Source: a virus (Duplodnaviria > Heunggongvirae > Uroviricota > Caudoviricetes). Taken from it: a stretch of 47,928 nucleotides of DNA. A program made the translations under genes and the position numbers. How positions within the stretch are numbered: the first letter of the stretch is position 1; each line of letters begins with the position of its first letter. The notes beneath the pieces are model-generated. The model was not told the DNA's origin. It saw nothing but the letters and a program-made list of their open reading frames with translations, and did not search any database. This document shows positions 1 through 25,533 of the stretch, piece after piece. Location of the stretch: the IMG/VR virus record IMGVR_UViG_2541047918_000003, one strand, 5' to 3'.

Positions 1-249
1 ATGCGTATTGAAATCTGCATAGCCAAAGAAAAAATGACTAAAATGCCAACCGGTGCTGTGGATGCGTTAAAGGAAGAATTAACCCGACGCATCAGTAAAC
101 GTTATGACGATGTAGAGGTGATCGTAAAAGCCACCAGCAACGATGGCCTTTCTGTTACGCGCACCGCCGATAAAGATTCAGCTAAAACTTTTGTTCAGGA
201 AACTCTGAAAGATACCTGGGAGTCTGCTGACGAGTGGTTTGTTCACTAA
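1..249 (+). CDS. DinI-like damage-inducible protein family
   Basis: 82 aa; ends ...[16 protein letters not shown], closely resembling the DinI C-terminus as recalled; ATG at position 1. Confidence 0.7.
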
Positions 250-366
250 TTAGCACGTAAAATCAGTAACAGCTGGAAATCATTCAATACTCGCACTATC
301 GAAAGTTAACCAGCCAGCCGCAGTATCCTGTCATGACAAGTTACTGCGGCTTTTTACTTTTTATAT

Positions 367-654
367 TTAACGGATCAACATCCAGATCAGCAGACACGCC
401 ACCACCGGCACAGCAAAATCCATCAGGCTTGCCACATCCCATGCACGTGGATCAAAACCGCCCCACCACGGCATGTTAATCCGCTTGCCATGCCCGAACA
501 TTTCAATCCAGCGATATTCTGCCTGGGTGTGTTCACGCGCAATGAAGAACGTACAACCGGCTATCGCCCCGTAAGCCCAGTTTCCGGTAAAAAGACCAGC
601 CAGTACCTGCACCGCCACGGCACAAAGCGCATGAAGTATCGACGTGATATCCAT
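367..654 (-). CDS. small hydrophobic membrane protein, unknown function
   Basis: 95 aa with two hydrophobic stretches; ATG preceded by AAGGGGAG; sits 10 nt after the stop of the 664-942 ORF. Confidence 0.45.
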   Translation of the reverse strand: MDITSILHALCAVAVQVLAGLFTGNWAYGAIAGCTFFIAREHTQAEYRWIEMFGHGKRINMPWWGGFDPRAWDVASLMDFAVPVVACLLIWMLIR

Positions 655-663
655 CTGCTCCCC

Positions 664-942
664 TTAAAACCACTCCCTGAGCGGGCGCTCTGGTGTAACC
701 ACCCACTCACGGAACACGGATTCATCAAAGCCATCGTCAAGAAGACGAATATTAACAAAGTACCCTTCGTCTCGCGTGTATTCAGGCTCCCCGTCAGCAG
801 AAACACCTGACTCACTGAACGTAAAACCAATCTCATCAACCAGAACGGCATTCTGCAGCTCTTCGTCCTCTTCCCAGTTAAGTTTCCTGAGAAATGCCCT
901 GAAATCTGCTTTATCACTGAAACGCAACGTGAAATCTCTCAC
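664..942 (-). CDS. hypothetical acidic protein, possible tail-fibre accessory protein
   Basis: 92 aa; GTG start overlapping the tail fibre stop (GTGA); GGGGAGG upstream; no family recognised. Confidence 0.4.
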   Translation of the reverse strand: MRDFTLRFSDKADFRAFLRKLNWEEDEELQNAVLVDEIGFTFSESGVSADGEPEYTRDEGYFVNIRLLDDGFDESVFREWVVTPERPLREWF

Positions 943-3002
943 TCCACAACCTCCCCAAGCTGCGCATCTGTTAGCTCTTTATGCCAGAGACGAAAATTCC
1001 TCACATGCCCAAATAAATGGCGTAATCCTGCTGTAGTTTGTCCACCAATGCGAATGGTTGCTGTACTCCGGATATATTCCCATTTGGTTTTAGTTTCGCT
1101 GCTTAACTTACCGTTACTGACTACACATGTGGACCGTTCGGACTTTACCCGCATACCAATAAGCATTTTTTCCAGCCCGGCATTTTCATTTATTCGTCGG
1201 TCTGAACCACCTATATCGCAATACGGAAAACCGTCGTACCCACCTGATGAACCAAACCCCATTACGATCCCCGCATCTGCCTGATGCCGGTATGTGTCAA
1301 AAACACGCGGTGCTGCATTTGGCGTTTTATACCAGTTCTTATGTACCTCACAAAGAACCGTAAAAGGAAGATTATAAAGATTATTCTTAATCGGAACTGT
1401 AACCATATCGCTTGCCCGCGTTACCGGTGCCGTCCCCGTAACAATAAAAGATGATGCGCCTGTACCAGCCTCAATCTGTGGAGTGGTTACATCGAGATAA
1501 TCCCCTGATGCAACCATCTGCCCTGTATCCGGAGAATACTGGACAAAACCACCAACCGTATTTTCTGTTGTATCTGCTTTTAATGTAGCCTCAAAAAATA
1601 TCCAGCCAGTTGCATCATCCTTAACAGACCTTGCTGTAACACGGCTTGTCTGACCTGTCTTGCTAATTATGCGGGTGGTAAGGTTCAGGTTTGCTGCTCC
1701 TATTGATGTCCTTACCTCCCCATCATAATGTTCAAATAAAATACGAACGGCGATATTATCAACTTCACTTTTTACCCGACAGGATATAGTTACATGCTTT
1801 TCGTCCCCTGAAGTATCAACCCCTCCGGTACTCGAATACAGTCCGATAATGGTATGCGCTTTACTTGTACCAACAATCGAATCCTGTACGACAAACCGGC
1901 CATAATTAAACCCGAAACTATCTGTGCCTGTTTCTGTAACGTCCAGTGAAGTTGACTTATTCCACTTCGAAGGGTCTGTACTGTTCTGGAAGAAGTTCGT
2001 TCTTTGTCCCTCAATAAGCAGGCCATCACACTCAAATCGCGGCTCATTAATTTCCGCCGTTTTCAGTTCGCCAGATTTGTTGATATATGTTGCCGTTGAT
2101 GCGCGACTGAAATTAACCTGTTTATCACTGGCAACCTGAACCACATTATCGCCAATCTTCACTTTTTTATAACCCGGAGAATAGCCCGTAATCATATCCA
2201 GCGAATCATTAAAGGGTATCCACACATCCGGCAGCGGCTGTAAAACATATCTGTACGGCTCTGCTGTCTGGTTTGCGTATTCTCTGGCAGCATCTTCACT
2301 TGCTTTTGCTGCCGTCTGGCTTGCTGCCGATGCTTTCGCCGAGTTCGCCGCCGCTGTTTCGCTCACCTTTGCGTTGGCTTCACTGTCTTTGGCATTCGTC
2401 TCACTGGTTTTCGCTGCCGTCTGGCTGGATTTTGCGTTTTTTTCGCTGGCCTTTGTGGCTGTCTCGCTATTTTTCGCGCTGGTTTCTGATTTTTTGGCTG
2501 CTGTCGCGGAGTTTGCCGATGCAGTCTGCGAGGCCGCTGCCGCCTGTGCGCTGTTAGCTGCATTCGTTTCTGAGGTTTTCGCCGCGTTCTTCGATGAGGC
2601 CGCTGCAGTTTCGGATTTCTTTGCCGCCGCTGCGCTCTGTGATGACGCTCCGGCATGACGTGCCACTTCATTCACCATCAGCTCAAAACGGCGCAGTGCC
2701 TCCGGACGGGCATCATCCTCCGTCATGGCACCGAGAAAATCATTCAGCGTACCTGGTCTGGAACCTTCATAGACGGTAATGGTCCCGGCATGTGAAGGCG
2801 GAAAATCTTCAACCAGCAGGGTGACGCTGTACTGGCCATACTCAACATCCATGCTGTAACGCCCGGCTTCATCCGGATTTTCAGAGGCCACCGTGTTCAC
2901 CACCACCGTGCTGCTGGTCCGTCTGGCCTTCAGCACAATGGTGCAGTTCTGTACTGGTTTTCCTGTGCCATCTTTAAGCACGCCAGAAATTTTTACTGTC
3001 AT
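939..3002 (-). CDS. stf: side tail fibre protein (Stf-like)
   Basis: 687 aa; N-terminus MTVKISGVLKDGTGKPVQNCTIVL typical of lambdoid Stf; central Ala/Ser/Thr/Lys/Glu repeats (AAKKSETAA...); divergent C-terminal domain. Confidence 0.8.
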   Translation of the reverse strand: MTVKISGVLKDGTGKPVQNCTIVLKARRTSSTVVVNTVASENPDEAGRYSMDVEYGQYSVTLLVEDFPPSHAGTITVYEGSRPGTLNDFLGAMTEDDARPEALRRFELMVNEVARHAGASSQSAAAAKKSETAAASSKNAAKTSETNAANSAQAAAASQTASANSATAAKKSETSAKNSETATKASEKNAKSSQTAAKTSETNAKDSEANAKVSETAAANSAKASAASQTAAKASEDAAREYANQTAEPYRYVLQPLPDVWIPFNDSLDMITGYSPGYKKVKIGDNVVQVASDKQVNFSRASTATYINKSGELKTAEINEPRFECDGLLIEGQRTNFFQNSTDPSKWNKSTSLDVTETGTDSFGFNYGRFVVQDSIVGTSKAHTIIGLYSSTGGVDTSGDEKHVTISCRVKSEVDNIAVRILFEHYDGEVRTSIGAANLNLTTRIISKTGQTSRVTARSVKDDATGWIFFEATLKADTTENTVGGFVQYSPDTGQMVASGDYLDVTTPQIEAGTGASSFIVTGTAPVTRASDMVTVPIKNNLYNLPFTVLCEVHKNWYKTPNAAPRVFDTYRHQADAGIVMGFGSSGGYDGFPYCDIGGSDRRINENAGLEKMLIGMRVKSERSTCVVSNGKLSSETKTKWEYIRSTATIRIGGQTTAGLRHLFGHVRNFRLWHKELTDAQLGEVVE

Positions 3003-3016
3003 ACTTTTCCACCAAT

Positions 3017-3047
3017 AAAAAAAGCCCGCAGCAGTGACGCCACGGGC
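3017..3047 (-). terminator. hairpin plus T-run between lom and stf
   Basis: GCCCG...CGGGC stem followed by T7 on the minus strand. Confidence 0.4.
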
Positions 3048-3153
3048 TTCAGGACAGTGTAACTTTACGTTTCCTCAAACGCAGTTCACCCCATAAGGCG
3101 GATGAACCTGCGTATCATAACAATATTTACAGAAGATAAATCGGCGTCTGTTG

Positions 3154-3753
3154 TCAGAAACGGTATCCGATACCAACAATAAATGCATCCGTTCGCCAGT
3201 CGCCACTGCCGGAGCCTTCATAAGCAATATCAATGGCCACGGATTCGGTCGGGTTAAACTGCACGCCAGCTCCCCACGCCAGAGAGGTATTGCTGTGGCG
3301 ACCGTCATCACTTCCGGTCAGCACGTCGTGCGTTTTCCCCTTGTTGTCAGTTACGCGGAGATAATCCCCGGAGAAAGTCGACACACGGCTGTAAGCCACA
3401 CCCGCCATCGCATACGCGCTGAACCATTCATTCACGCGCACAGACGGCCCCGCCATCACGCTGAACCAGCGGTTACGCACGGAATCTTCATGCCAGCGGG
3501 TATCGCTGTAATGCGTTTTTTGCTCATCTTTGGCATTGGCATAACTGAATGACGTCACCAGCCCCAGCGTGTCCGTAAACTCATAACGGTATTTCACGTT
3601 AATCCCGTTCAGATCATCGCTGCCTGGCATATCAGTATGGGTCTGAAGATACCCGGCGCTTAGTGTGGACTGATGCTCTGCTGCGCTCGCTGGCGTACCA
3701 GCGGCAACCAGCCAGACTACTGCGGACAGAATAACAGCACATAATTTACGCAT
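3154..3753 (-). CDS. lom: Lom outer membrane protein (Ail/Lom family)
   Basis: 199 aa; signal peptide; beta-barrel pattern ending GIGYRF; position directly after J. Confidence 0.85.
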   Translation of the reverse strand: MRKLCAVILSAVVWLVAAGTPASAAEHQSTLSAGYLQTHTDMPGSDDLNGINVKYRYEFTDTLGLVTSFSYANAKDEQKTHYSDTRWHEDSVRNRWFSVMAGPSVRVNEWFSAYAMAGVAYSRVSTFSGDYLRVTDNKGKTHDVLTGSDDGRHSNTSLAWGAGVQFNPTESVAIDIAYEGSGSGDWRTDAFIVGIGYRF

Positions 3754-3777
3754 AATTACCTCTCGCTTTTCTGCAAT

Positions 3778-3801
3778 AAAAAAGGCGCCATTTCTGGCGC
3801 C
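3778..3801 (-). terminator. intrinsic terminator after J
   Basis: Perfect 7-bp stem GGCGCCA/TGGCGCC with loop, followed by T6 on the minus strand. Confidence 0.55.
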
Positions 3802-3820
3802 CGTATTGGGGTTATAAAAT

Positions 3821-6800
3821 TCAGCTAATCGTGATGCCTGCAGTGGCTTTCTTCATCACAACAACCAGCAAATCGCTGATACTTGCTGTGGGATACCAGC
3901 CATTTACCCACCATGCTGATACAGAAAACTCCAGCGTCATGTGGCCGCGACCAGCAGGCATATCAATAACACCACTGTAAACCAGCGTATTATCCATCGC
4001 GGTACGGTTATAAATTTCAGCACCGTTTTTCTTCACTATCAGGCGGCATGACGAATAAGTATCGCTGTTCTCCCGCTCATGTCTGGCACCGCTGAAAGCC
4101 ACCGCCGGAATAACAATCTGCCGGTTAAACGGCTGATCGTCATAAACCCTGACGGTAATGGTTCCTGATGGCCAACGCTTCGGTGCACGGGAGTCACGAG
4201 GGAAAGCCTTACCCACTGTTTTAACGAGATCGCCTTCAATCTGGTTTGCAGACAGTTTCCCTCTGATGACACAGTTCTCGTTAATGGTGACATTATTGAG
4301 CGTGCCGGTATTCGCCGTGATGGCTCCACTGATATCCGCATTGCGGGCTGTCAGCCTGCCATCCGGCGTCAGGGAAAACGTCGGAGGATTGCCGGATGAC
4401 GTGATGCTCACCGCAAACAGTCGCTTCAGGAACACGTCGTTCATGAACAGCTGATTCCCCTGCGCCACAAACAGCGGCGTGGTGTTGCCGTTCTCCGGGG
4501 TAATCATCGCAATGCGATCGGCCTGCAGCAGAATGTTACTCAGGGTCTGACCATCAACATCCTCAATCCCCGCGCCAATCCCGGCCACATAGGGAATACC
4601 GTTTTTTGTTTTCTGCACCTTCAGCATATACATGGCATTCAGCTCATTGCGCGTGTCTGACTGAACCCGCTGGATTTGCTGTATGGTCACGGCCTGGTCA
4701 CCCAGCTTTTTATCCGTGGTCGAGGTAATTTCACTCCCTTTTTTATCCACGTACTGGCGGACCTGTGCTATCTGTCGGGCGTTTTCTGACTGCCCCTGGC
4801 TGACAGTCTGTGAGATTTCACTGCTCACCCGGTCCACTTTCTGGCTCACCTGCGCGATGGCCAGTGTCTGGTCCTCATTCTTTTTCGCAACCAGCTGCGT
4901 GAGGCTGTTTTCCGCCTTCCCGATTTTCCGGGTCACTTCTGCGATATCCGTGTCCATCCGCTGACGGATATCTTCTTCCAGTTGCGTGACCTCCGTACGC
5001 AGCGCTGAAGCATCAATGCGCTCTTTCAGTGCCTGACCCAGAAGCGTCTCATCTATCAGCCCCCGGAAAATTTCCAGATACCCTTCACCATCATTGCTGG
5101 GCTGCCCGCTGGCTTCCACAAAAGCAGATTTTCCCACCAGGTTGACGCTTCGCACGTAAAACCAGAAATCCGTCCCCGGCTTAATCCGGCTCCCCTGGAC
5201 AGTCCACTGACTGCCGGTCCCCAGATAACGGGCAGATTTTTCCACCTGTGCTGTGTTCGTGATGCGTTTTTCTGAGAACCAGAATTCAAACTGTACCGTC
5301 GGGTCATACACCGCAAGACGCGGGACCGCCGTTATCTGAAAATACCCCGGCGTCAGCTCAATGGTGGCGGGTTTTGCAGGTGCGTTAATCCGGAACGATA
5401 CCGACGCCGGATCGCCCTGCTGTCCCCGGGCATTTACCGCCCGGACCGTCAGCGTGTAACGCCCCAGCGCCAGCTGCCTGAAGCGGTAAGTGGTTTCCGC
5501 CGTCCGGGCCGTGCTGACCAGCCGCTCACTGCCGTCATCCGCTGTTACGGTCAGACGGAGCAGGAAGCTCACGCCCTTCACCACCTTCGGCGTGTCCCAG
5601 CGCGCCAGCACCTGATATTCCCCGCTGTCTGCGGTGACTTCGGCGGTCAGGTGCTGCACCGCTGGCGGCGTGACACCATTCACCGTGCCGCTCTGGTCGC
5701 CGTCAAAGTGCGCTCCGTTATCCACGATGGCCTCTTTTTCCGGTACATGCTGCACGGCGGTGATGGCATACGCACCGTCATCGTTCTCCCGGATACTCAC
5801 ACAGCGGAACAGGCGCTGGCGCAGCGTCGGCAGCTTCAGCCCCCACACGCTGTATTCGGCAACGCCGTCAGGAATACGGCTCACTTTCACCTTCACGCCG
5901 TCGGTGACGGACTGGACCTCCACGCTGACCGGATTCCCACTTCCGTCAACCAGGCTTATCAGCGTGGTGCCGGAGGATGACAGCATGATTTCACGGTCGA
6001 GCGTCAGCGTCCGGGTCTGGCTGTTCACCGCCAGCACGCGCCCGCCGGTGCTGATACCGGCATAGTCATCATCACAGATTTCAATGACATCGCCCGGAAC
6101 ATGGCGAAGCCCTTCTGCGCCGACGCTGAAGTCCACGGTCTGCGTTTCCAGCAGTTCTGTTTTAATCAGCCACAGCCCGGCGCGGTGTGCCTGCCCCCGG
6201 CTGGTACAGCCAAAGGCATCCATCTTCGTGACGTTACGACCGTAACGGGCAATGGCCTGCGTGTCCTCCACAAGCTCTGTTGCCGTCTCCCAGCCGTTAT
6301 CCGGGTCAATCCAGTTCACCTCAACGGCATTATGGCGGTCCTTCAGGGCGCTGAAGCTGTAGCGGAACGGCGCGCCATCATCCGGCATCACCACATTACT
6401 GCGGTTATAGGTCCACACCTTATCCGACGGTCGGTCCTGCACGAACGTCAGCGTCTGCCCGTTCCATACCGGCATACAGCGCATCGCCGAGCAAAAATCA
6501 CTGAGCACATCCCACGCCTTGCGCTGTGTGGTCAGGTACGCATTACAGGTGATGCGCGGCTCCGTGCCGCCAAAGCCGTCCGGCACTGACTGGTCGCAGT
6601 ACTGGCCGATGACATACAGCGCCCATTTATCCACATCCGCTGCACCAAGACGTTTCCCCATGCCGTAGCGCGGATGGGTCAGCATATCCCACAGACACCA
6701 GGCCATGTTGTTGCTGTATGCCGGTTTAAACGTTCCGTCCCAGATACCGCTGTATTGCCGCGTCTGCGGGTTATAATTCGACGGCACCTGCAGAATACGC

Positions 6801-13160: not shown

Positions 13161-13182
13161 AAAAAAAACCGCCGAAGCGGTT
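13161..13182 (-). terminator. terminator-like hairpin between GT and H
   Basis: AACCGC TTCG GCGGTT followed by T8 on the minus strand, directly upstream of the H start. Confidence 0.35.
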
Positions 13183-13190
13183 ATGTTGAC

Positions 13191-13879
13191 TCACTGAGAC
13201 ACTATTAAAAGCGCGTTTTCCAGTCCAGCAAATGGATCTGATACGCCTTCTGTCTGCTCCTTCTCCCACTGAAGAAGCGCATCATTCAGTGGCACTTTGA
13301 CCCCCTGCGCACCGTAAACAGCTGAAACAATCTGGGCAGCCCGGATATCAGCCCGTTCGTCCCCCAGCGGGCTGAACCTGTCAAATTCTGCCCACATCAT
13401 GATTTCTGATGCGGACATTTCCCGGCGTAACTCTGACAATGTGCGCCCCATCCTGAGCGCCAGCATCATCAGAAAACGCATCCCCGGAAGCGCTACTTTT
13501 TTTTAACCTCGCCGGCATCACTGATTAGTTCCAGAGACTGCCGAAGAAGCCGCGCATGCACCGGGCCATACACGGCAATCACCTGTTCACGATCATCCTC
13601 TGAAAATACAGGTTGCAGTCCGGTATCACACAGAACATCGATGAACAGTTCAACATCCGCTTCCAGATTTCGGCGGGCGCGCTCCGCAACGGATAACGGT
13701 GTCTCATCATCTTTTGCTTTAACGATCTCCTGCCAGCGCAACCAGGCTTCTGCAGAAGGTTCCCGTAATACAACCGTTGCCCCTTCCCATTCAGGCACAT
13801 CAACAGTTTTATGGCGAAACCCCGACATCGTTGCCAGTGCCAGATTACGGATATTTTTAGTCATCACATCTATCCTCAT
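13191..13879 (-). CDS. T: tail assembly chaperone GT fusion, made by a -1 programmed frameshift
   Basis: T-frame ORF (13191-13481) is in the -1 frame relative to G; slippery A AAA AAG sits immediately before the G stop. Confidence 0.65.
13493..13879 (-). CDS. G: tail assembly chaperone G
   Basis: 128 aa; ends VKKK-stop; start overlaps the V stop (TAATG). Confidence 0.75.
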   Translation of the reverse strand: MRIDVMTKNIRNLALATMSGFRHKTVDVPEWEGATVVLREPSAEAWLRWQEIVKAKDDETPLSVAERARRNLEADVELFIDVLCDTGLQPVFSEDDREQVIAVYGPVHARLLRQSLELISDAGEVKKK

Positions 13880-18002: not shown

Positions 18003-19221
18003 CGTTCTTTTCCTCTTTGCCTTTCGTATCTTTAAAGTTATTCAACGGATTTGCTGCATTTACGCTGACCAGCATTTCATCCAGACCGTCAACCGGGTTC
18101 ATATCCTCAAATGCCCTGGCTTCATTCCGACTCATCCAGCCATCTGTAATGGCAAAGTGATAGAACTGCGCACGCTCCTGTGGGGTCCCACGGAGCAACC
18201 CCGTGAGGTTGAAACGAACGTAATACCCGGCAGCCCGTTCTGTACGGGTAAACAGGCGACGGTTAAGCTCCTGCTCCCAGTTCGCAACCCAGGGCATCAT
18301 CGTGTAGCGAACAAACTGAATCGCCTGCTGCGTAATATTCGAAAATGTGGCTTTTTCCAGGTCATTAATCATGTGCGCCGGGACATTAAAAATCCCGGCA
18401 ATCATCGACCGGTTCAGCTTGGTCATATCAATGATCTGAGCATCCACCGGAGAAACTGTCAGAGCGCGGTAATCCAGTTGCGCAGGCAGCAACATGGTTT
18501 TATTTTCCTGGCTGCGAAGCGCTGTCACCGCCCGCTGCCACATATTTTTAAGCCTGCCCCAGCTTTGTTCGTTCAGTTCATTTTTCACAGAAATAATACC
18601 GGCAGGACGGGCATTACCGTTAAAAAAGGCGCTGGTATACTGCTGGCCACTCATTCCCATACCAATGGTTTCAGCATGCTGCATGATCGGGCTCAGTCCC
18701 ATTTTCTGATTGTTTCCCAGCGCCCTGATATGGATCATGTCGTCCGGACTTACCGCAAATGCACCCTCTTCGTTATACACCCCGTAAGTATGACGCCCAC
18801 CGGTGTTAAGTAACGTGGTTTCCCATGGCATACAGCATTCAAGGCTGGTAACCTCTCCACGACGATTACGTTTTACCCACGTATAACCATTGCCCCACCC
18901 CAGCACATGACGCTGCTTCAGTTCCCGCCACTTATAGCTGGTCTGCCAGGCATTAGGTTCATCATGAACGAGCCAGAACAACGGATGATCGCGTGCCGGC
19001 TGAACATGCTCATTCGTTTTTCGCATCACATGCAGGGGCATCTGAGCCACACTGGATGAAATAACATAAATACAGGCATAGACAGCAGCCAGCTTCATGG
19101 ATGTTTCCGGACTGACATACACATCCCGGGCAAAAATATTATCCGTCTCAGCGGCCTCTCCGGTTACCGGAACCGAGGGATTTTCCAGAGGCTCACTGCG
19201 AAACAGAGCATCAAGAAGCAT
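17995..19221 (-). CDS. portal protein (HK97 family)
   Basis: 408 aa; AGGAG upstream of the ATG; follows terminase. Confidence 0.85.
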   Translation of the reverse strand: MLLDALFRSEPLENPSVPVTGEAAETDNIFARDVYVSPETSMKLAAVYACIYVISSSVAQMPLHVMRKTNEHVQPARDHPLFWLVHDEPNAWQTSYKWRELKQRHVLGWGNGYTWVKRNRRGEVTSLECCMPWETTLLNTGGRHTYGVYNEEGAFAVSPDDMIHIRALGNNQKMGLSPIMQHAETIGMGMSGQQYTSAFFNGNARPAGIISVKNELNEQSWGRLKNMWQRAVTALRSQENKTMLLPAQLDYRALTVSPVDAQIIDMTKLNRSMIAGIFNVPAHMINDLEKATFSNITQQAIQFVRYTMMPWVANWEQELNRRLFTRTERAAGYYVRFNLTGLLRGTPQERAQFYHFAITDGWMSRNEARAFEDMNPVDGLDEMLVSVNAANPLNNFKDTKGKEEKNDE

Positions 19222-25283: not shown

Positions 25284-25360
25284 TGGCGCGTTGTACTGGA
25301 TTCGAACCAGTGACCGATTGCTTAGAAGGCAATTGCTCTGTCCGGTTGAGCTAACAACGC
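25284..25360 (-). tRNA. argO: tRNA-Arg (anticodon UCU)
   Basis: 77 nt; cloverleaf; anticodon loop CTTCTAA; T-arm GGTTCGAATCC; encoded CCA. Confidence 0.85.
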
Positions 25361-25373
25361 AGGGTACAGATAA

Positions 25374-25450
25374 TGGACCGCCATCGAGGACTCGAACCCC
25401 GCGCAACCAGCTTCGAAGGCTGGCGCTCTATCCTGATGAGCTAATGGCGG
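25374..25450 (-). tRNA. argN: tRNA-Arg (anticodon UCG)
   Basis: About 77 nt; anticodon loop CTTCGAA; T-arm TTCGAGT; CCA end; exact 5' end uncertain by 1 nt. Confidence 0.75.
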
Positions 25451-25457
25451 TATGTGA

Positions 25458-25533
25458 TGGTGGCCCTTGCTGGATTTGAACCAGCGACCTGGCGATTATG
25501 AGTCGCTCGCTCTCACCACTGAGCTAAAGGGCC
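25458..25533 (-). tRNA. ileZ: tRNA-Ile2 (anticodon CAU, lysidine type; would also score as Met)
   Basis: 76 nt GGCCCTTTAGCTCAGTGG...CTCATAA...GGTTCAAATCC...GGGCCACCA; close to E. coli ileX as recalled. Confidence 0.85.

Follow-up and report, generated by a model that had tools for sequence, protein, structure and literature searches.

Organization of the locus

The window, i.e. the whole stretch of 47,928 nt analysed here, begins with three small genes within positions 1–942. A dinI-like gene occupies 1..249 on the + strand as an 82-aa ORF with its ATG at position 1, as given in the preliminary description, and corresponds to WP_001217553.1 in the 99.8% identical strain JNEC-KY173. On the same strand, an intrinsic terminator follows at 316..364, composed of a hairpin with 18-nt arms (316–351) and then TTTTTACTTTTTAT. 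The − strand carries the gene for a 95-aa membrane protein (367..654; ATG start; WP_001513565.1; PHROG 1443), the gene for a 92-aa acidic protein (664..942; GTG start; WP_001204583.1; PHROG 1361) and the side tail fibre gene stf (939..3002), which encodes 687 aa with a PF08400 anchor and a distal module. Beyond stf, a terminator-like hairpin with a 13-bp stem (seven GC pairs) and a T-run lies between lom and stf (3021..3050, −). The coordinates thus place both of the − strand small genes downstream of the side tail fibre, in agreement with the earlier reading. Homologues of the products of the dinI-like, 92-aa and 95-aa genes begin at the same residue. Judged from their sequences, the three ORFs are genuine conserved genes rather than chance ORFs, because the first matches the Pfam DinI family (E 1.1e-19) and the 92-aa and 95-aa proteins belong to families of 178 and 563 clusters, respectively, at 90% identity.

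The dinI-like gene is directed rightward and the other two leftward, and the two units converge on a gap of 117 bp (250–366) that contains the hairpin (316–351) and its T-run. The dinI-like gene had been called divergent; its arrangement with the other two genes is instead tail-to-tail. Within this lambdoid prophage of E. coli, two transcription units run toward each other and end in positions 1–942; the three small genes are divided between these two separate units and do not form a single cargo cluster. The window is colinear, at 99.5–99.75% identity, with a prophage integrated in yecE, adjoining yecD. The prophage lies between yecD/yecE′ and int, with the dinI-like gene as its last gene. 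Its repressor is a LexA-family (S24) protein. An Rfam scan of positions 1–3900 gave no significant RNA family.

The dinI-like gene

Assignment of the first gene to the DinI family, proposed earlier, was upheld by Pfam, by PHROGs and by an end-to-end alignment with E. coli DinI. The protein scored 70.9 bits against PF06183 (cut-off, 24.2; E 1.1e-19), its residues 16–80 covering profile positions 1–63 of 63, and matched PHROG 189 (RecA filament binding protein DinI) at 5.7e-31. Against PDB 1GHH, residues 1–81 aligned with an E-value of 3.7e-13, with TWESADEWF placed opposite TWESADDWF, and the C-terminal helix motif TWESAD(D/E)WF is therefore conserved. The PGAP annotation of the gene is likewise DinI-like. 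Since its score against the NCBIfam DinI equivalog (PRK10597) was 73 bits and fell short of the cut-off of 111, the prophage gene is, by this measure, a paralogue and not an orthologue of chromosomal dinI. E. coli DinI (1GHH) is similar in size (81 aa, against 82 aa for the prophage protein) and shares the N-terminal MRIE and the acidic C-terminal helix; E. coli DinI is SOS-induced, and LexA boxes are also present at the promoter of the prophage gene in near-identical loci. Unlike E. coli DinI, the paralogue is prophage-borne, is located at the att end and has two tandem LexA boxes.

The promoter and the LexA boxes lie just outside the window and were read from loci of 98.8–100% identity. In every such locus having upstream sequence, two perfect LexA boxes (CTGT-N8-ACAG) were found within 60 nt 5′ of the dinI-like ATG, and these boxes were kept although the sequence farther upstream differs between loci. 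The promoter in the near-identical loci consists of TTGACA and TAAAAA separated by 17 nt, one perfect LexA box filling the spacer and the second following just downstream. A DinI variant of 62% identity has the same promoter layout with one LexA box degenerate. Over 50 kb of the prophage region, three perfect LexA boxes were observed, compared with 0.65 expected. Transcription of the dinI-like gene is predicted to be under LexA (SOS) control, and the behaviour expected from such a LexA-box promoter is that the gene would be silent in a healthy lysogen and turned on early in the SOS response.

At its other end, the gene has its own terminator, the stop codon being followed after 67 nt by the inverted repeat at 316–351, in which the arms are 89% complementary and have no spacer between them. 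The region 250–366 folds at −29 kcal/mol (z = −3.7), and none of 200 shuffled sequences (0/200) folded as well. The T-run stands beside the hairpin on the + strand side only. A Tum-like or Gifsy-like antirepressor partner was considered and set aside, as there is no ORF between the dinI-like gene and the terminator.

Among related loci, the dinI-like gene was present in 11/46 and 12/78 (23/124), and its presence varied independently of the 92-aa and 95-aa genes. With its own promoter, its own terminator and variable presence, the dinI-like gene is a classic stand-alone moron, already annotated as such a gene, and the last gene before att. In the preliminary description, the three small genes had been grouped as a moron cluster; that label stands for the dinI-like gene, with its own terminator and, in near-identical loci, its own SOS promoter. 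What truly varies as a cargo slot is the space on the opposite strand beyond the 95-aa gene, occupied here by the dinI-like gene and, in phage 21 and Lambda_ev203, by sitABCD.

By likeness to E. coli DinI, the product would bind RecA filaments via its acidic C-terminal helix. Modulation of the RecA co-protease could then alter the timing of cleavage of the S24 repressor, LexA and UmuD; that the gene tunes RecA-dependent induction is plausible, given that this repressor is itself a LexA-family (S24) protein. After excision, the dinI-like gene would lie downstream of int across attP in the same orientation, where the early leftward transcript could cover it as well. The closest described cases are in Salmonella, where Gifsy-1/2/3 carry LexA-controlled dinI homologues with a terminator-like palindrome ahead (Lemire et al. 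2011, PMC3121763); prophage dinI homologues are conserved in many enterobacterial prophages (PMC3121763). Like the present gene, the dinI genes of Gifsy-1/2/3 and the DinI-like half of phage 186 Tum are prophage-encoded; they are also LexA-controlled, as is predicted here. However, dinI of Gifsy is the first gene of an operon with an antirepressor and irsA, whereas the present gene stands alone, and the Gifsy repressor is controlled by an antirepressor, whereas that of the present prophage is a cleavable LexA-family protein. In the Gifsy prophages, induction was not significantly changed by deletion of the dinI homologues (PMC3121763), and the effect of the prophage dinI-like gene on induction may therefore be small or absent. 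Concentration-dependent effects of DinI on RecA have been reviewed (PMC6590174).

The side tail fibre and the late operon

The side tail fibre begins with the PF08400 anchor (2.4e-67), continues as an Ala/Ser/Thr-rich shaft and ends in a distal module (approximately residues 252–687), a homologue of the GTA head-spike-fibre domain with a LamG-like end. Within this module, residues 329–530 matched NCBIfam GTA_spike_fiber (NF048003) at 4.2e-19, and residues 252–682 aligned with a Laminin_G_3 protein of a Mu-like prophage at 29% identity (E 2e-34). The tip belongs to the concanavalin-A-like lectin/glucanase class, and no catalytic family was detected in it by Pfam or NCBIfam. The head spike fibre of RcGTA binds capsular polysaccharide (PMC7296036); together with the match to the head-spike-fibre domain, this suggests that the fibre tip of the present prophage may bind a polysaccharide. 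The domain shared with the RcGTA head spike fibre Rcc01080 is that at fibre residues 329–530. In RcGTA, the fibre is attached to the capsid via a jellyroll base protein and no 92-aa partner has been reported, whereas here the head-spike-fibre domain is carried on a lambda-type side tail fibre.

Terminators were found on both sides of lom. A crude consensus scan of the − strand of positions 1–3900, which a weak promoter could escape, found no promoter-like site. In the lysogen, the hairpin at 3021..3050 would keep transcription of lom from running on into stf and the two small genes behind it. Taking together the terminator on the lom side, the lack of any internal promoter in the scan and the coupled start signals of the genes, we conclude that stf and the two small − strand genes form the tail end of the late operon.

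The 92-aa protein as a predicted partner of the fibre

The GTG start of the 92-aa gene overlaps the stop codon of the fibre gene, as had been pointed out from the sequence, the two sharing the tetranucleotide GTGA at 942–939; a Shine–Dalgarno sequence, GGGGAGG, is located at 950–956, 7 nt upstream of the start. The acidic character claimed for the protein was also evident (pI 4.25; 23 D+E against 11 K+R). The protein is cytoplasmic, and its AF2 model (pLDDT 89.6) has an alpha/beta fold. Both small − strand proteins had been left unassigned, and the homology search that had been called for gave large families for each, none with a Pfam or NCBIfam match. The scans of Pfam, NCBIfam and PADLOC covered the 92-aa and 95-aa proteins plus 39 family members; for the 92-aa protein, they gave no significant match, and a profile search of PDB sequences was empty. 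Foldseek comparison of the model with PDB gave nothing significant (best E 0.044, TM 0.41), the fold resembling only generic alpha/beta proteins such as ribosomal S10 and PII (E ≥0.04, TM ≤0.43), and the BFVD fold search returned uncharacterized phage proteins only. Giant proteins of 1,200–2,700 aa with 5–9 matched stretches, found by exhaustive HMMER, were set aside as compositional matches because they consist of acidic PKD-like or low-complexity repeats.

The association of this family with the fibre is close at the level of the genome. A family member was located directly after the gene for the distal module in 46/46 and 78/78 viral loci (124/124). We then extended the comparison to seven distant contexts, i.e. 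a Mu-like Leclercia prophage, two lambdoid prophages, E. ruysiae, Comamonas and two metagenomic phages, and the pairing was found in all seven, the upstream gene carrying a homologous module (E 1e-214 to 6.5e-16 against the distal-module HMM); stop and start codons overlapped by 1–4 nt in six of these. Variants of the 92-aa protein (approximately 99% and 92%) each occur with both variants of the fibre tip (approximately 100% and 70%), and since the variants mix freely, there is no fine co-variation between protein and tip. In Comamonas and Pantoea, the 92-aa domain has a C-terminal extension of about 90 aa, which matched function-less PHROGs only and no Pfam family.

The 92-aa gene is not a moron: it has the GTGA overlap, lacks a promoter-like site and always occurs with the fibre module, and on these grounds of translational coupling and inseparability from the distal module, the earlier cluster label fails for it. 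Being adjacent to the distal module, coupled to it and co-inherited with it, the gene has the features of the functional class of assembly proteins, and we read its product as a predicted dedicated fibre assembly or tip partner. The protein would be made together with the fibre and would bind the LamG-type distal module, either as a folding or assembly chaperone or as a retained subunit of the tip.

Pairs of fibre and assembly-protein genes are well known, including Stf–Tfa of lambda, gp37–gp38 of T4, S–U of Mu and H–G of P2 (Caudo_TAP PF02413). As in pairs of the Stf–Tfa type, the present gene is small, coupled, placed directly 3′ of the fibre gene and exchanged with the distal module. Unlike Tfa, however, the 92-aa protein is about half the size, and it bears no sequence or fold similarity to Caudo_TAP or DUF4376 proteins, Pfam and NCBIfam giving no membership in either family; more broadly, no likeness to known chaperones was seen in sequence or fold. 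The genomic logic of lambda Stf–Tfa is thus shared, yet the protein family is unrelated. Literature searches turned up no relevant description of a chaperone for fibres of this type. The Mu-like prophage also carries a normal Caudo_TAP gene, beside its main fibre. A counterpart of the RcGTA head-spike base protein was ruled out, the base protein being a jellyroll.

A very improbable alternative is that the 92-aa protein is an immunity-like inhibitor that, inside the producing cell, covers a site of enzymatic activity or of binding on the fibre tip: a small acidic cytoplasmic protein encoded directly 3′ of a variable C-terminal module with a stop/start overlap, next to a tip of the concanavalin-A-like lectin/glucanase class, would suit such a role, but its variants pair freely with both tip variants, unlike tightly co-varying immunity pairs, and the tip has no detectable catalytic family.

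The 95-aa membrane protein

The 95-aa product had been described as a membrane protein, which its hydrophobicity (GRAVY 0.61) and the three long helices of its AF2 model (residues 4–23, 26–53 and 74–94; pLDDT 91.9) bear out. The family is invariant at H8, Q16, R40, E41, Q44–I50, R58, P62, G65–D68, W72, D79 and P83. The protein had no match in Pfam, NCBIfam, PADLOC or PDB, and the best hit in the fold search of the model had an E-value of 2.2. The ribosome-binding site of the gene, AGGGGAG, overlaps the stop codon of the 92-aa gene, and neither a promoter nor a terminator of its own was found. Family members are found with other types of fibre too, as well as in non-phage chromosomal settings. 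As to the moron label, the evidence is mixed for this gene: its layout makes it the final gene of the late tail operon, while its distribution resembles that of a captured cellular gene.

The neighbourhoods of the family are of several kinds. The gene lies directly behind fibre or Tfa genes in phage 21, the podovirus phiv142-3 and the myovirus phiHAP-1; it stays last where an extra Peptidase_S74 short-fibre gene is inserted ahead, and in Comamonas, Pantoea and Chelativorans the family is found alongside the fibre module and members of the 92-aa family. It is also often found just ahead of endolysin genes. In Aeromonas and sphingomonads, members stand beside housekeeping-type genes, with Pirin upstream in four loci, NAD-dependent DNA ligase upstream in two and PNPase in one. 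In an Aeromonas phage carrying the family, the neighbours are all unannotated. Because the family adjoins housekeeping-type and endolysin genes as well, its link with the fibre may be positional rather than functional. The protein would be an inner-membrane protein with a conserved polar core (H8, Q16, R40-E41-H42 and D79), from a family present also in cells, and its gene rides at the end of tail-fibre modules. Our best guess is that the protein benefits the phage through a function related to the envelope or to entry.

HK97 gp15, Cor and T5 Llp are factors for superinfection exclusion or for the blocking of receptor or entry. A more specific proposal, which we consider rather unlikely, is that the 95-aa protein is such an inner-membrane exclusion or blocking factor, matched to the receptor-binding genes and directed against phages of the same type. 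The proposal agrees with three features: the gene regularly comes next behind a fibre or Tfa gene in sipho-, podo- and myoviruses, it is retained in distant hosts alongside the fibre module and the 92-aa family, and its product has three membrane helices with conserved polar residues. It is weakened, however, by the lack of a detected promoter for expression in the lysogen, by the lack of a PADLOC match and by the loci adjoining Pirin, DNA ligase and PNPase; moreover, the homologues in beta- and alphaproteobacterial loci are 46–63% identical to the window protein, which suggests a conserved biochemical activity and not an arms race. The N-terminus, MDITSILHALC, read from the sequence, contains neither a basic n-region nor an L-[AS]-[GA]-C lipobox, and an exclusion lipoprotein of the Cor/Llp type was rejected on the lack of a signal peptide lipobox.

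Less probable still is the view that all three small genes are morons, i.e. lysogenic-conversion cargo beyond the fibre that is expressed for the benefit of the host. The genes lie beside att where the late operon ends, at a known hot spot for cargo; the dinI-like gene does have its own promoter and terminator, and the 95-aa family in non-phage chromosomes suggests capture from cells. Against this view, the start of the 92-aa gene overlaps the fibre stop, and the gene was never found without the distal module of the fibre; the ribosome-binding site of the 95-aa gene in turn overlaps the 92-aa stop. In addition, the − strand of positions 1–3900 has no promoter-like site and a terminator stands between lom and stf, while the dinI-like gene is gained and lost independently of the other two.

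A lysis-related role of the 95-aa protein as a holin, antiholin or other membrane component of a lysis cassette is highly improbable: an endolysin is the next sizeable gene in five of the 28 species-level loci (four Phage_lysozyme, one GH108), in phiv142-3 the 95-aa gene stands just ahead of genes for a membrane protein, a holin, an endolysin and an endopeptidase, and one family member matched Phage_holin_8 weakly (E 0.042), but the prophage already has a complete lysis cassette (class II holin, lysozyme and lysis protein) approximately 20 kb away, the C-terminus is hydrophobic (...CLLIWMLIR) and without the charged tail of holins, so that holin membership failed, the sequence conservation is unusually strong for a holin, and copies lie beside housekeeping-type genes in bacterial chromosomes.

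Significance of the locus

Taking the evidence of the three genes together, we regard as reasonably probable an arrangement in which an SOS-controlled dinI-like moron faces the end of the late tail operon, the latter consisting of the fibre with its partner and a membrane protein. The arrangement of the − strand genes is shared with other phages. In phage 21 (OL657228), CPT_21_22/23/24 encode a 687-aa fibre, a 92-aa hypothetical protein with a 4-nt overlap and a putative membrane protein of approximately 97 aa, the last of which is 88% identical to the 95-aa protein; the same order of fibre, 92-aa protein and membrane protein occurs in ev243, PhiR49_2, mEp460 and Lambda_ev203. Phage 21 and Lambda_ev203 differ in the following opposite-strand slot, where sitABCD is found and not dinI. 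The two small genes are annotated without function in the records of phage 21 and Lambda_ev203.

The 92-aa family (PHROGs 1361 and 18574), to which neither Pfam, NCBIfam nor PHROGs assigns a function, may be a new partner class for receptor-binding modules of the LamG/head-spike-fibre type, and may move with the module between siphoviruses, Mu-like myoviruses and other phages. The 95-aa family may be a cellular protein that was captured by phages and parked behind receptor-binding genes, with a new role in envelope modification or entry exclusion. Both readings, of a new partner class for receptor-binding modules and of a captured membrane protein with a new envelope or entry role, are tentative.

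The finding is ordinary and does not overturn current understanding. The dinI-like gene is a further case of a predicted SOS-controlled RecA modulator at the att end of a prophage, and a prophage with RecA-assisted repressor cleavage is a better test case than Gifsy for an effect of dinI on the induction threshold. The 95-aa family, being large, strongly conserved and absent from Pfam, NCBIfam and PADLOC, is a reasonable small target for functional work. The LamG-tipped fibre module is common in E. coli, and if the 92-aa protein is needed for a functional tip, its gene would have to accompany the fibre module onto lambda-type delivery particles and engineered phages.

Gene organization of the region

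Five genes were located in the first 3 kb of the window, one on the plus strand and four on the minus strand: the DinI-like ORF (82 aa, 1..249, +), a 95-aa ORF (367..654, −), a 92-aa ORF (664..942, −), the side tail fibre gene stf (687 aa, 939..3002, −) and lom (3154..3753, −). The GTG start of the 92-aa ORF and the fibre stop share the tetranucleotide GTGA, and a GGGGAGG ribosome-binding site lies before the GTG. The 92-aa stop is separated from the 95-aa start by 9 nt, and the ribosome-binding site of the 95-aa ORF (AGGGGAG) overlaps this stop. The 92-aa protein is acidic (pI 4.25) and the 95-aa protein hydrophobic (GRAVY 0.61), in agreement with the preliminary description, which had recorded an acidic protein with a GTG overlapping the fibre stop and a small membrane protein. 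That account of the three small genes is essentially correct except for the orientation of the DinI-like gene, described as divergent: it is convergent with the 92-aa/95-aa pair across a gap of 117 bp. This gap contains a hairpin with 18-nt arms (316-351) followed by TTTTTACTTTTTAT on the plus strand; the fold of the region, at −29 kcal/mol (z = −3.7), was equalled by none of 200 shuffled sequences.

The lom gene has a terminator-like hairpin with a T-run on either side, at 3021-3050 and 3783-3802 (−), one of them after J and the other before stf, and is thereby built like a moron in its own right within the tail operon.

The 3 kb region was 99.8% identical to E. coli JNEC-KY173, and 298 of 5,426 complete E. 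coli genomes had 80% or more of the first 3.1 kb. In JNEC-KY173, PGAP labels the DinI-like gene 'DinI-like family protein' and each of the other two small genes 'hypothetical protein'. The prophage is of the HK97/lambda-like type, encodes a LexA-family (S24) repressor and occupies yecE, adjoining yecD, with the DinI-like gene terminal, about 260 bp from the junction. The window and the JNEC-KY173 prophage are colinear (99.5-99.75% identity). At 13182-13226 the window lacks about 400 bp that in JNEC-KY173 encode a zinc-ribbon protein; this further variably present insert is located where the gene of tail assembly protein T adjoins that of the tape measure. The stretch just past the Q antiterminator region, 25284-25533 (−), contains three tRNA genes: Arg-TCT, Arg-TCG and one with a CAT anticodon, Ile according to PGAP. 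Between about 40300 and 47928 (coordinates mapped from the compared locus L003), beyond the integrase of the prophage and a fragment of yecE, the window enters a second element with a serine recombinase, tape-measure and baseplate genes, so that two elements lie side by side at yecE.

The DinI-like gene and its predicted SOS promoter

The 82-aa protein matched Pfam DinI (1.1e-19; 70.9 bits, the cut-off being 24.2) and, at 5.7e-31, PHROG 189, 'RecA filament binding protein DinI'. The solved structure 1GHH of E. coli DinI aligned with it over residues 1 to 81 (E 3.7e-13); both proteins begin with MRIE and carry the acidic C-terminal helix TWESAD(D/E)WF. On these sequence matches, its assignment to the DinI family, already proposed in the preliminary description, is secure. 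The score against the NCBIfam DinI equivalog (73 bits) fell under the cut-off of 111, which makes the gene a paralogue of chromosomal dinI.

Because the window starts exactly at the ATG, the promoter lies outside it and was read from a 100% identical locus, in which the sequence is TTGACA-CTGTttatctatACAG-TTAAAAATAACA-CTGTatacaaacACAG-TATAGAGGGACTTTT-ATG: a −35/−10 pair whose spacer contains one perfect predicted LexA box, with another such box shortly after. Both boxes were found in all related loci that match this stretch at 98.8-100% identity and include upstream sequence, among them those in which the DNA farther upstream is unrelated, and a 62%-identical DinI variant has the same promoter layout with one box degenerate. 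Only three perfect CTGT-N8-ACAG sites occur in 50 kb of the region (0.65 expected), two of which are these promoter boxes. The sole perfect site inside the window (18240-18255; 0.7 expected by chance) lies in the portal gene and, being no more than chance predicts, is unlikely to bind LexA. Beyond the window, on the stretch from the yecE junction to the dinI promoter (L001 7856-7917), ATGCCCCA(A/C)AA occurs three times within about 60 bp, and more repeats with GCCCCA are found close by; the 62%-identical variant is preceded by a comparable run, and these repeats may be integrase arm-type sites.

Among related loci, the gene was present in only 11 of 46 and 12 of 78, and its opposite-strand slot is filled by sitABCD in phage 21 and Lambda_ev203. 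With a predicted SOS promoter and terminator of its own and this patchy presence, the DinI-like gene is a textbook moron.

When stoichiometric, DinI stabilizes RecA filaments; at high levels it inhibits the recombinase activity and the cleavage of UmuD (PMC6590174). Gifsy prophages carry LexA-controlled dinI homologues, which head an operon containing an antirepressor; induction was not significantly altered when these homologues were deleted (PMC3121763). Unlike the Gifsy operons, no ORF lies between the DinI-like gene and its terminator, so that it stands alone. An effect on induction timing is plausible, as the prophage repressor is a cleavable LexA-family protein. After excision, judging from gene order, the gene would follow int on the other side of attP and point the same way, and the early leftward transcript could then include it as well.

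Genomic pairing of the 92-aa gene with the distal fibre module

The 92-aa gene was found directly behind a gene with the same distal fibre module in 46/46 and 78/78 viral contigs. The module recurred in the gene upstream of a 92-aa family member in seven independent, more distant contexts: a 498-aa Laminin_G_3 protein of a Mu-like Leclercia prophage, in which its gene is inserted between gp43 and gp44, a protein of 595 aa encoded behind J in a further E. coli prophage, one of 621 aa from a Leclercia lambdoid prophage, an E. ruysiae fibre, a 388-aa Comamonas protein, and proteins of 941 aa (between terminase and portal) and 437 aa from two metagenomic phages. In six of these contexts, stop and start overlapped by 1-4 nt. 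With an HMM built from fibre residues 246-687 and three relatives, E-values were 6e-53 to 6.5e-16 for the four independent proteins; those for the three seed proteins (1e-214 to 1e-171) are circular.

The distal part of the fibre (residues 329-687) matched the head-spike-fibre domain of the gene transfer agent RcGTA over residues 329-530 (4.2e-19) and ends in a LamG_3-type motif (GHVRNFRLWHKELTDAQL); the homologous fibre of RcGTA binds capsular polysaccharide. These two similarities suggest a polysaccharide receptor for the tip. Residues of about 110-245 form a long repetitive, SETAAKNSA-like shaft rich in Ala, Ser, Thr and Lys.

Close homologues of the 92-aa protein formed 24 clusters, in E. 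coli only, and exhaustive HMMER and profile searches extended the family to 178 clusters of about 77-100 aa with the motifs M-x-D-x-x-L-[KR]-F, D-x-I-G, G-[YW]-x-V-N-x-R and P-x-R-x-W. No model of the family was found in Pfam, NCBIfam or PADLOC; PHROGs 1361 and 18574, which cover it, are both labelled 'unknown function'. The AlphaFold2 model is a confident alpha/beta fold (pLDDT 89.6) with no significant match in the PDB and only uncharacterised phage proteins in BFVD. In three Pantoea and Comamonas loci (L156, L160 and L166), the domain forms the N-terminal half of longer proteins (171-188 aa) whose C-terminal half matches only PHROGs 6034 and 14311, both of unknown function.

Genomic context is the main evidence: since a small coupled gene that moves with the receptor-binding module across morphotypes is typical of a fibre assembly factor or a tip subunit, we infer that the 92-aa protein is one of these. 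Two observations speak against a tightly specific pairing with the tip, such as toxin and immunity: variants of the 92-aa protein at ~99% and ~92% were each found with fibre-tip variants at ~100% and ~70%, and Pfam and NCBIfam scans detected no catalytic family in the tip.

The 95-aa membrane protein family

The 95-aa family (563 clusters) is far larger than the 92-aa family, with members in Escherichia, Salmonella, Leclercia, Enterobacter, Aeromonas, Comamonas and sphingomonads that are 46-63% identical to the protein of the window. Its alignment contains an unusually conserved stretch, FFIAREHTQAEYRWI..FG.GKR.NMPWWGGFDPR.W, and invariant polar residues (H8, Q16, R40, E41 and D79) in or bordering the predicted helices, which span 4-23, 26-53 and 74-94 in the AF2 model (pLDDT 91.9). 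No described counterpart was detected by fold or sequence search (Pfam, NCBIfam, PADLOC, PDB).

In phages, members directly follow the fibre and 92-aa genes in phage 21 and lambda-like phages, the tail-fibre assembly gene (before the sheath gene) in myovirus phiHAP-1, and the tail fibre (before the lysis genes) in podovirus phiv142-3. The complete trio of fibre, 92-aa and membrane-protein genes is present in the cultivated phages 21, ev243, PhiR49_2 and Lambda_ev203, and in Comamonas, Pantoea and Chelativorans the family is likewise found together with the fibre module and 92-aa family members. Roughly one in two of the close relatives has an additional short fibre gene inserted between the 92-aa and 95-aa genes (L140 3918-4958, L142 4286-4990); it encodes 234-346 aa including a Peptidase_S74 intramolecular-chaperone domain, and the 95-aa gene stays last. 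Pirin was the upstream neighbour at four of the species-level loci scanned, NAD-dependent DNA ligase at two and PNPase at one. Because members also adjoin such non-phage genes, the family looks like a cellular membrane-protein family picked up by phages and kept at the end of the tail-fibre module.

A crude promoter scan, together with the search for terminators, gave neither for the 95-aa gene in this prophage, and in a lysogen its expression should be blocked by the terminator that separates lom from stf. Together these points indicate late expression rather than lysogenic conversion, to the extent that so crude a scan allows. An entry-exclusion or envelope-related role is a tentative suggestion, the likeliest of several weak options. 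A lysis role is improbable: at 5 of 28 species-level loci the first large gene to follow encodes an endolysin, but the prophage has a full lysis cassette elsewhere.

The moron cluster proposed for the three small genes thus holds for the DinI-like gene; the 92-aa gene, by its coupling and constant pairing with the distal module, belongs to the fibre, and the 95-aa gene is mixed, with no promoter of its own in the scan and with apparently cellular relatives. The DinI-like gene is ordinary and already annotated as such. What is new is the tie of the 92-aa family to a LamG-type fibre tip across unrelated phages, and the recognition of the 95-aa family as a large conserved family without assigned function; both are of moderate interest for the study and engineering of phage receptor-binding proteins.
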